Origin: an archaeon
GTDB taxonomy: Archaea > Nanobdellota > Nanobdellia > Pacearchaeales > GW2011-AR1
Length of the DNA stretch: 64,000 bases
Direction: 5' to 3'
Assembly (NCBI GenBank): GCA_030605415.1
Contig: JAUWIJ010000006.1
Span: 2,335-66,334, forward strand
Shown here: piece by piece, positions 25,293 through 25,398 of the stretch
How positions within the stretch are numbered: position 1 is the first letter of the stretch
Layout: each line of letters opens with the position of its first letter
The notes under the pieces: model-generated
What the model saw: only the letters and a program-made list of their open reading frames with translations
What the model was told of the DNA's origin: nothing
The model's database searches: none
Position numbers and translations under genes: made by a program

Positions 25293-25398
25293 TTTGAACA
25301 CACGACAGTCGGGGGCGAATAAAACGCTTTGAGGAAAAACAAATTCAAAATCAAATATTTTTCGAAATGTATTTTATGAGTAAAATCCCCTGGGGCCA
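25293..25398 (+). repeat. Cassette-A unit: partial tRNA-Lys 3' copy interrupted by a conserved 67-nt cassette
   Basis: Junction ttgaacacacgaca, then gtcggggg, then cgaataaaacgctttgagg...tattttatgagta, then aaatcccctggggcca. Homologous unit at 59851-59958. Confidence 0.8.

Follow-up and report, generated by a model that had tools for sequence, protein, structure and literature searches.

Short hairpin cassettes within duplicated gene ends in an archaeal genome of the order Pacearchaeales

Casposons carry Cas1 and a polymerase and generate a fixed duplication of 14 to 15 bp, and a site-specific integrase has a single att specificity. The attC sites of integrons are imperfect hairpins on a scale of 57 to 141 nt, with conserved unpaired bases, a variable apex, and strand specificity. 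In CTX prophages an inverted target-like sequence lies beside the junction, and the integration of AAV leaves the target partly duplicated and the gene preserved. Prokaryotic MITEs are small, multicopy, noncoding elements with a hairpin inverted-repeat body, a patchy presence among relatives, and a target duplication that is short and fixed in length. Long direct repeats of variable length, which extend over a gene's 3' end or over an entire tRNA, accompany the insertion of restriction-modification units and of IS1630 of Mycoplasma (19 to 26 bp), and there is no other mobility gene in these inserts (PMC2853133). Casposons and other tRNA-3'-end integrators insert at the 3' end of a tRNA or protein gene, and the terminal duplication preserves the gene (PMC5137440, PMC9897764). 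Noncanonical archaeal tRNA introns and split tRNAs involve T-loop, D-loop, and 29/30 positions, and related inserts are found in different tRNAs (PMC3293823, PMC4090602).

Here we analyze a family of hairpin cassettes in an archaeal genome of 888 kb (22 contigs, 35% G+C, 89% complete) that originates from a cold-seep metagenome and contains intron-bearing tRNAs, an archaeal RNase P RNA, and two diversity-generating retroelements. The window, namely, the whole stretch of DNA analyzed, comprises 64,000 nt. The units formed by the cassettes resemble the systems above in some respects and differ from them in others. (i) The MITE traits present are a hairpin of 60 to 75 nt, ~26 copies in this genome, and up to 29 copies in relatives. 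However, the duplication is of variable length (12 to 45 bp), one junction carries an extra inverted target copy of 8 to 14 nt, the arms show conserved mismatches and covariation and so differ from plain identical TIRs, insertion is into the end of an essential gene, and no parent IS or transposase was found. (ii) Restriction-modification units and IS1630 are kilobase-sized gene units or an IS with its own transposase, respectively, and neither a conserved hairpin cargo nor an inverted target copy of fixed 8 nt has been described for them. (iii) In contrast to casposons, Cas1 is absent here, and in contrast to integrases, which use one att site, a 60- to 75-nt insert occupies more than 20 targets. 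(iv) The cassettes resemble attC sites in size, conserved unpaired bases, variable apical part, and strand specificity, whereas their terminal boxes are G.A-mismatched YGAR motifs (complementary R''/R' core boxes, RYYYAAC/GTTRRRY, in attC), and the XerA-type paralogs of the genome do not track them. The inverted target-like sequence recalls CTX prophages, and the partly duplicated target with a preserved gene recalls AAV; however, attC and CTX recombination produce no 12- to 45-bp target duplication, the target-like arms are locus specific here, and no enzyme of the IntI, Xer, or HUH type could be tied to the cassette. (v) The insertion positions and the presence of related inserts in different tRNAs are shared with noncanonical tRNA introns, but the units lack a bulge-helix-bulge (BHB) motif, are extra nonfunctional copies, are sometimes antisense, and occur at protein genes as well. 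Taken together, the element looks like a variant of miniature nonautonomous insertion elements. A preliminary description of this DNA had not recognized the architecture, and we likewise found it described neither in Rfam nor in the literature available for searching, whose coverage is incomplete, so that novelty is not proven thereby.

Units in the window

The preliminary description had reported four cassette copies, located beside tRNA-Lys, tRNA-Thr, and tRNA-Leu, and a covariance model (CM R1) recovered all of them, at 25315-25383 and 59873-59938 on the plus strand and at 59270-59336 and 59414-59479 on the minus strand. The first copy follows an intact tRNA-Lys(UUU) gene, its target (25218..25292, plus strand; ARAGORN and Rfam RF00005, 72.7 bits). 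Outward from this gene, and on the same strand, the unit consists of (i) segment B' (25293..25307), which the sequence and the inverted-repeat statistics identify as an imperfect inverted copy of tRNA-Lys nt 46 to 59 (T-stem 5' strand and T-loop); (ii) segment B (25308..25315), an 8-nt direct copy of tRNA-Lys nt 46 to 53 that abuts the cassette at the general 8-nt offset; (iii) the family-1 hairpin cassette of 67 nt (25316..25382), assigned by covariation and by its CM R1 match (72.5 bits); and (iv) segment C2 (25383..25399), a direct copy of the last 16 to 17 nt of the tRNA plus 1 nt of trailer that represents the target duplication, with 25383-25398 equaling the last 16 to 17 nt minus one C. 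A second tRNA-Lys unit with an unrelated family-4 cassette adjoins (25400..25503, plus strand); in it, the cassette is accompanied by an inverted copy of the T-loop and by a third, decayed copy of the 3' end of tRNA-Lys (25488-25503).

The same order is found after the intact tRNA-Thr(CGU) gene (59778..59850, plus strand; ARAGORN and Rfam). Here, B' (59851..59865) is an inverted copy of the 5' half of the T-arm and forms a 14-bp palindrome with B (59866..59873), the 8-nt direct copy of tRNA-Thr nt 45 to 52. The family-1 hairpin cassette (59874..59937; CM R1 match, 81.2 bits) and a C2 segment that copies the last 20 nt of the tRNA plus ~4 nt of trailer (59938..59961) complete the unit, all on the plus strand, and the site is empty in the relative G024. 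The two remaining copies lie on the minus strand in mirror-type units upstream of an intact tRNA-Leu(UAA) gene (59540..59623, plus strand; ARAGORN and Rfam). Unit 1 (59260..59356) contains a remnant of tRNA-Leu nt 6 to 11, the cassette (59270-59336), a D-loop copy (59336-59343), and an inverted copy (59344-59356), and unit 2 (59398..59502) contains a copy of tRNA-Leu nt 1 to 11 (59400-59410), the cassette (59414-59479), a D-loop copy (59479-59486), and an inverted copy (59487-59502). A TATA-like box of its own precedes unit 2.

Units with other cassettes are also present on the plus strand. After tRNA-Leu, family-2 unit(s) occupy 59624..59741 and comprise T-arm copies in both inverted and direct orientation, a cassette of 33 nt (59653-59685), a repeat of the tRNA-Leu 3' end (59686-59712), and the beginning of another unit; related strains, represented by contigs of other samples, skip 59663-59776. 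Upstream of the real tRNA-Met gene (58402-58477) lies a pseudo-tRNA-Met (58174..58330) made up of nt 1 to 44, a 45-nt insert, nt 46 to 62, and a family-4 cassette, and downstream of the real gene a truncated unit (58478..58544) retains an inverted T-arm copy, a B segment of 8 nt, and ~24 nt from the start of a variant cassette. In the window, only tRNAs passed the Rfam gathering threshold, and a search over 20 cassette loci retrieved nothing relevant at an E value of ≤0.1.

Several claims of the preliminary description can be evaluated with these data. The flanks do match the local tRNA (nt 46 to 53 and the 3' end of tRNA-Lys; the T-stem 5' strand and the last 20 nt of tRNA-Thr), and the proposed 6-bp helix between the cassette ends, with its compensatory change, grows to a covarying hairpin of 18 to 24 pairs. 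The junction and the cassette had both been considered homologous between loci; this holds for the cassette, whereas the junction is an imperfect inverted copy of the 5' half of the T-arm of the local tRNA.

Cassette family, hairpin, and scaffold

A profile derived from the four copies retrieved about 26 to 28 family-1 cassettes from the 0.89-Mb genome, and the covariance model retrieved 23. The cassettes are 60 to 75 nt long, contain no ORF, and occur in both orientations. There is a clear association with tRNA genes, since 21 of 26 copies are at most 200 nt from an ARAGORN tRNA gene, a zone that amounts to ~2% of the genome (P of ~1e-31). Most copies outside this zone adjoin tRNAs missed by ARAGORN (a tRNA-Phe detected by Rfam and an intron-bearing tRNA), lie at a contig end together with copies of the tRNA-Lys(CUU) 3' end, or lie at the 3' end of a protein gene; copy C4:16826 is nested beside a family-3 cassette, and no tRNA or gene end was assigned to it. 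Near-identical apices are shared by three cassettes, namely, those of tRNA-Thr(UGU), tRNA-Ser(GGA), and the protein gene. Truncated copies keep B', B, and the gene-proximal half and lack the 3' half. Runs of at least five T occur in half of the copies and equally on both strands, and a role of the apical AAATAT(T)n as an outward TATA box or terminator was dropped on these grounds.

The cassette folds as an irregular hairpin of 24 pairs with strong covariation. For an 18-pair structure, 94.9% of the cells in the 22 copies of this genome were paired, compared to 77% in shuffles; 14 of the 18 pairs had changed on both sides, the observed level was reached by 0 of 500 shuffles, and controls with a slid structure fell to 33 to 56% paired. 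Unpaired positions are conserved as well in 65 distinct copies from many genomes, with two YGAR/YGAR sheared tandem G.A motifs retained in 62 to 64, a C.A mismatch in 61, and a U.U mismatch in all 65. The pair that closes the outer G.A motif is CG in 38 copies and UA in 26, with no mismatch in these 64 (the 65th lacks the 5' base), and the apical loop varies in length and sequence. Outside the fixed columns of the same copies, G.U exceeded A.C (55 versus 24), which together with the purine-purine motifs indicates that the named sense strand is the structured one. Folding-energy z-scores of whole units were unremarkable (-2.5 to +0.7), and since the energy is not exceptional, the case for a structure rests on covariation. 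The orthologous tRNA-Lys units of this genome and of G024 have identical flanks and differ by four compensatory pairs in one stem, a block-wise covariation that looks like exchange between family members. Four units, when folded, gave an uninterrupted hairpin that contained internal loops of the 2x2 and 1x1 types and, on its 3' side, an asymmetric loop of 6 nt; no BHB motif was present at their junctions. A box C/D sRNA was considered and rejected, as a RUGAUGA C box was found in 0 of 66 copies on either strand and the G.A pairs are in symmetric 2x2 loops that lack a 3-nt bulge.

The cassette is embedded in a scaffold of target-derived segments. Outward from the gene, the intact gene end (B-x-C) is followed by a spacer of 0 to 35 nt, B', 0 to 4 nt, B, the cassette, and C2. 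B' is an inverted copy of B that is often extended over x and the first bases of C (~8 to 14 nt), B has 8 nt, the cassette replaces x (1 to 6 nt), and C2 is a direct copy of C that runs 1 to 25 nt beyond the gene end. The resulting target duplication varies in length from 12 to 45 bp. Its likeness to the local gene exceeds chance, with a median of 18 matches over 40 units against 6 for mismatched tRNA/unit pairs, and C2 was above the 95th percentile of this control in 35 of the 40. The starts of C2 cluster at -17/-18 from the tRNA end, which corresponds to the T-loop between positions 56 and 57, and at -11/-12. C2 is 98% identical to the gene, and the 19 differences are biased toward AT (13 GC->AT against 3). 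A perfect inverted repeat just upstream of the cassette (arm of ≥5, loop of ≤4) was present in 62 of 133 units, compared to 17.5% of random 44-mers; the right arm started 7 to 8 nt before the cassette in 47 of these 62 units and exactly 8 nt before it in 34, which defines an 8-nt palindrome rule.

Upstream units are the mirror image of this arrangement, built on the 5' end of the tRNA, with nt 1 to 11 duplicated in the case of tRNA-Leu. In the upstream units of tRNA-Glu and tRNA-Cys, the disrupted copy is near full length and decayed, and the cassette is in the anticodon arm; in these two cases, and also in the Leu units, the cassette runs antisense to the tRNA. An intact tRNA adjoins the units, and no unit is the sole copy of its tRNA. 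The same scaffold also surrounds unrelated cassettes, including a 33-mer that recurs unchanged at six loci (behind each of the three tRNA-Leu genes and one tRNA-Ser gene), a further family found downstream of tRNA-Lys as well as upstream of tRNA-Met and tRNA-Arg, a perfect hairpin that follows tRNA-Tyr, and 40-nt inserts between 5' fragments of tRNA-Thr(GGU) and tRNA-Gln. The scaffold thus belongs to the insertion process and not to one particular cassette.

Distribution, targets, and turnover in relatives

Within the genus, the covariance model matched 43 of 49 genomes, with 0 to 29 copies each; three of the six cassette-free genomes are at least 90% complete. In an even sample of the order (121 genomes), only two other genera, both of the same family, contained the cassette (G144, 14 copies; G134, 1 copy). 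The covariance-model search found no cassette in eight other families of the order, and it was also absent from 69 other searched genomes of its own family. All 60 GTDB loci with the motif belong to DPANN metagenome-assembled genomes (MAGs) labeled Pacearchaeota, Woesearchaeota, or Nanoarchaeota.

The preference for tRNA genes is maintained in relatives, in which 32 of 39 and 45 of 75 copies (77 of 114) are 10 to 30 nt downstream of a tRNA on the same strand. The targets span essentially all isoacceptor families and more than 20 different tRNA species. Inverted downstream copies account for 5 of 75 copies in relatives; among downstream copies, the inverted orientation is seen in about 1 in 10, and others are upstream and divergent. 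Of the 15 tRNA-less copies, at least six start 8 to 23 nt after the stop codon of an ORF on the same strand. Two protein-gene targets recur in different genomes: a protein of ~495 aa ending in SAGVRRIKAILE/K and proteins ending in GGLLRF..ID. The insertion into a few protein genes is about 25 nt before the stop codon. Orthologous copies at protein-gene sites are intact in several genomes, which could reflect selection rather than repeated insertion.

Comparison of orthologous sites points to turnover. At tRNA-Lys(UUU), such sites were empty or contained a short unrelated cassette, one unit, or at least three tandem units. In G024 (86% identity in the neighboring gene), tRNA-Thr(CGU) is directly followed by the promoter of that gene, and the unit site is thus empty. 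Individual units are also skipped by related strains in other samples. The gene order around tRNA-Thr and tRNA-Leu is altered in the relative G054.

Origin of the units and competing explanations

We consider it probable (roughly 60%) that the cassette is a nonautonomous, structure-dependent miniature insertion element of one DPANN genus (Pacearchaeota/Woesearchaeota type) that targets gene termini. The preliminary description had argued for mobility at the DNA level rather than for a conventional intron, and comparative sequence data support this view through the spread in copy number, the near absence of the family from the rest of the order, the empty and occupied sites, the presence of both orientations, and the insertions at protein-gene ends. 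The cassettes are found 12 to 30 nt inside gene termini, at the outward ends of transcription units. Most often they occupy the tRNA T-loop (56|57) or the border between T-loop and T-stem, and less often the D-loop or anticodon stem at a tRNA 5' end or the 3' end of a protein gene. According to the mechanism that we propose, the T-loop sequence GTTC|RAAT and similar sites, such as GGAGTTC|GAAGG in the protein gene of G046, would be preferred entry points. The terminal segment is duplicated from the insertion point to 1 to 25 nt past the gene end, and because of this duplication the copy in the gene body stays intact, leaving the cassette in a redundant, decaying copy.

The inverted copy of the 8 nt inside the insertion point suggests that the reaction passes through a hairpin or fold-back at a constant distance of 8 nt, and a break or nick 8 nt inside the entry point may become this fold-back. 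Since the inverted arm copies the uninterrupted target, its synthesis presumably preceded the joining of the cassette or used the opposite strand as template. That motifs are strand specific and orientation is biased 9:1 suggests that the hairpin takes part as single-stranded DNA (or RNA). Outward DNA synthesis from the gene would then regenerate the terminal segment, and cutting may be carried out by a trans-acting enzyme encoded outside the element. We know of no transposition chemistry that gives this exact layout of direct and inverted target copies. The closest mechanistic analogies are Rep-mediated integration of AAV, with its partial target duplication; the opening of hairpins of the hAT/RAG type, which leaves palindromic footprints, also with an 8-bp offset; and the folded single-strand substrates of integron and Xer recombinases.

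No transposase, casposase, HUH/Rep enzyme, or TnpB was found in this 89%-complete genome. Y1 transposase (PF01797), TnpB (PF07282), and Cas1 (PF01867) are absent from it; searches for Viral_Rep and Rep_1 gave no match and are uninformative, since their controls gave none either; and a resolvase search gave subthreshold matches only. An all-against-all comparison of the ORFs for multicopy proteins retrieved HEPN/MNT pairs and surface-protein families but no transposase. A scan of IMG/VR with the cassette motif identified no viral carrier, and a loose, noisy regular expression for unpaired left and right arms gave no convincing long element that could represent an autonomous copy. Known elements considered as the source of the cassette were rejected: (i) a guide-RNA flank in the style of TnpB or of the IS110 bridge RNA, as no such protein is present here and the flanks decay with an AT bias; (ii) a PATE derived from IS200/IS605, given the absence of PF01797 and PF07282 and the presence of target duplications; (iii) a casposon derivative, given the absence of PF01867 and the variable length of the duplication; and (iv) a template/variable repeat pair of a diversity-generating retroelement (DGR), with 2 of 19 differences at A, the RT loci located elsewhere and devoid of the cassette, and most cassette-bearing genomes lacking an RT. 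The enzyme may be a universal host enzyme or one encoded by an unsampled virus or plasmid.

Of the competing explanations, a function as RNA is in our view unlikely. According to it, the cassette is a small RNA or RNA domain that forms the cotranscribed 3' trailer of tRNAs and of some mRNAs. Such a hairpin could bind a protein and serve in 3' processing, in termination, or in stabilization; recombination would have spread it, with the duplications as side effects. The strong covariation, the conserved sheared G.A, C.A, and U.U mismatches typical of structured RNA, and the excess of G.U over A.C on the sense strand agree with this explanation, as do the location of 77 of 114 copies of relatives 10 to 30 nt downstream of a same-strand tRNA and the runs of at least five T in half of the copies, which could end archaeal transcription. 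However, a copy number of 0 to 29 within one genus, with six genomes devoid of it (three of them at least 90% complete), and the absence from 69 other searched genomes of the family argue against such a function. Orthologous sites are empty or contain unrelated cassettes, tandem arrays and truncated and decayed copies are found, and about 1 in 10 downstream copies is inverted and some are upstream and divergent. Furthermore, there is no Rfam match, there are no C/D boxes, and the folding energy is no better than that of shuffles. The readings as an insertion element and as a functional RNA can both hold.

The genome encodes two RTs, of which one adjoins a bAvd gene and the other an Lcl_C-type gene, which raises the very doubtful alternative of a retroelement, in which DGR-type RTs copy the cassette RNA by target-primed or snap-back synthesis at transcript ends. 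Target-primed reverse transcription typically yields duplications of variable length together with inverted segments at the junctions, and the duplications end near the transcript ends of tRNAs and mRNAs. However, an RT is present in only 19 of the 49 congeneric genomes and shows no relation to cassette load: genomes rich in cassettes (16 to 20 copies) lack it, and one cassette-free genome has it. In addition, the DGR loci contain no cassette-like sequence, adenine-specific mutagenesis is not seen (2 of 19 changes at A), and truncated copies lack the 3' half and not the 5' half.

There is a slim chance that the cassette is a mobile archaeal tRNA intron and that the partial copies are what is left of tRNA genes, either split or with introns, whose place was taken by copies devoid of introns. 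Insertion is at 53/54, 56/57, ~29/30, and the D-loop, which coincides with noncanonical intron positions in archaea, and the near-full-length pseudo-tRNA-Cys and pseudo-tRNA-Glu contain an internal cassette. A link between intron gain and mobile elements has also been proposed (PMC3293823). Against this, no unit is the only copy of its tRNA, the units of Cys, Glu, and Leu carry the cassette in antisense orientation, and the junctions form no BHB. Removal of the cassette restores no tRNA, as 1 to 6 nt are missing and the pseudocopies are decayed, and the protein-gene targets cannot be tRNA introns.

Highly improbable is an origin as att scars, i.e., the att-proximal ends left at tRNA genes by deleted elements with a tyrosine integrase (viruses or plasmids). 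Integration into tRNA genes is a classical source of partial tRNA copies (PMC9897764), and the genome has four tyrosine-recombinase-like genes; yet these "integrases" include a topoisomerase IB as well as two XerA paralogs whose presence is not correlated with that of the cassette, the second paralog being present in a subset of genomes unrelated to cassette load. The same 67-nt insert is found at more than 20 tRNA species and at protein genes with locally matching repeats, which are too many targets for an integrase. No integrase adjoins any unit of the window, no recombinase lies between the repeats, whose inserts are 90 to 115 bp, and the recombinase genes are located elsewhere. A full-length element was not found either, and both the variable length of the repeats and the inverted target copy speak against att scars. 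The chance that metagenome assembly produced the repeats is practically negligible, since, even though the MAG is fragmented (22 contigs) and some units are at contig ends, independent Logan contigs of the source sample tile the region without differences, a 182-nt contig from a marine-sediment sample of another study spans tRNA-Thr and the whole unit with 4 differences, and the same architecture is present in more than 40 independently assembled genomes.

Returning to the insertion element, a more far-reaching proposal, which we regard as tentative, is that it represents a new class of hairpin elements that encode no enzyme in cis and reside at the ends of essential single-copy genes of ultrasmall archaea. 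Several unrelated families would share host or viral machinery, and their reaction would be without a described counterpart; a single-stranded hairpin would be joined into the T-loop or an equivalent site, a hairpin or fold-back of the target would form exactly 8 nt away, and the terminal 12 to 45 bp would be resynthesized, which would preserve the gene. DPANN genomes are smaller than 1 Mb and have their tRNA genes in single copy, so that an insertion into one of these should be lethal. Selfish DNA that regenerates the end of the gene could sit in essential genes without killing its host. The constant 8-nt inverted footprint is a clue to the activity that cuts and joins the DNA. The units also explain many of the partial tRNA matches and contig breaks in DPANN MAGs, and their inverted and direct repeats can drive rearrangements around tRNA clusters. 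Finally, the units may bear on the origin of noncanonical tRNA introns and split tRNA genes.

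Additional repeats and nested insertions

A 33-nt hairpin-forming sequence is found with 100% identity at six loci of the source genome (window 59653-59685 and, with C numbers denoting contigs, C8:7665, C8:8038, C15:13114, C19:49041, and C19:70467). It lies immediately 3' of all three tRNA-Leu genes and near one tRNA-Ser gene, and the scaffold of duplicated target that surrounds it is of the same kind as that around the other cassettes. Within variant cassettes located 3' of tRNAs, a 38-nt element, CCCCGCCCAGTTTCAAATATATTTGGTAGGGTATAGAG, is nested (C5:44394-44480, C6:8959-8996, C12:62460-62497, C8:7899, and C14:1673); it is an insertion inside another insertion. 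A separate repeat of ~25 nt, with a consensus near AGAACTGAGACCGCTTCGCTCTGAG, is dispersed in more than 35 copies, commonly in short tandem clusters and with no linkage to tRNAs; examples are found at window ~52784-52870 (C1:55118-55205), C4:16960-17080, and C9:31956-32168.

Recombinases, retroelements, and toxin-antitoxin-like modules

The same genome encodes two paralogous XerA-type tyrosine recombinases (C7:35024-35827 and C19:64443-65240), which share 46% identity and both pass the XerA equivalog cutoff; the second type is present in only about one third of the genus. Two diversity-generating retroelements are contained within its 0.89 Mb (C9:41829-45416, locus L073, and C11:1-3608, locus L074). 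In one, the RT and bAvd adjoin a repetitive ORF of more than 10 kb, and in the other the RT adjoins a target with an Lcl_C domain. Odd "tRNA-Ile/Phe" genes of 83 to 85 nt called by ARAGORN at C9:41226-41921 lie inside the giant repetitive ORF and are probably false. Furthermore, six paralogous two-gene modules, one of which adjoins tRNA-Cys, look like HEPN/minimal-nucleotidyltransferase toxin-antitoxin pairs (C2:5569-6248, C19:54814-55505, C5:30419-31110, and C6:41613-44354).

Altered tRNA loci

Upstream of tRNA-Thr(GGU), the first 24 nt of this gene occur twice in tandem together with a 40-nt insert (C12:22630-22890). Since the sole TATA-like box precedes the first fragment, a leader of ~128 nt may precede the real tRNA in its transcript. 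On contig C7, outside the window, tRNA-Ile(GAU) is followed by two cassette units and, just past them, by an LSU rRNA match that has no second instance anywhere in the assembly. This isolated 111-nt fragment (C7:66125-66235, locus L149/L006) corresponds to model positions 1157 to 1270, the GTPase-center region, and could be either a captured gene fragment or part of a fragmented rRNA.

In the genome of a relative (G054:C97, locus L139), tRNA-Thr, tRNA-Leu, and a neighboring gene differ in order and orientation from window 59200-60100. There, tRNA-Thr is followed by the inverted target copy (B') and a truncated direct copy (B), fused directly to a Leu-upstream unit. This gene order and fusion suggest rearrangements with breakpoints at cassette borders.
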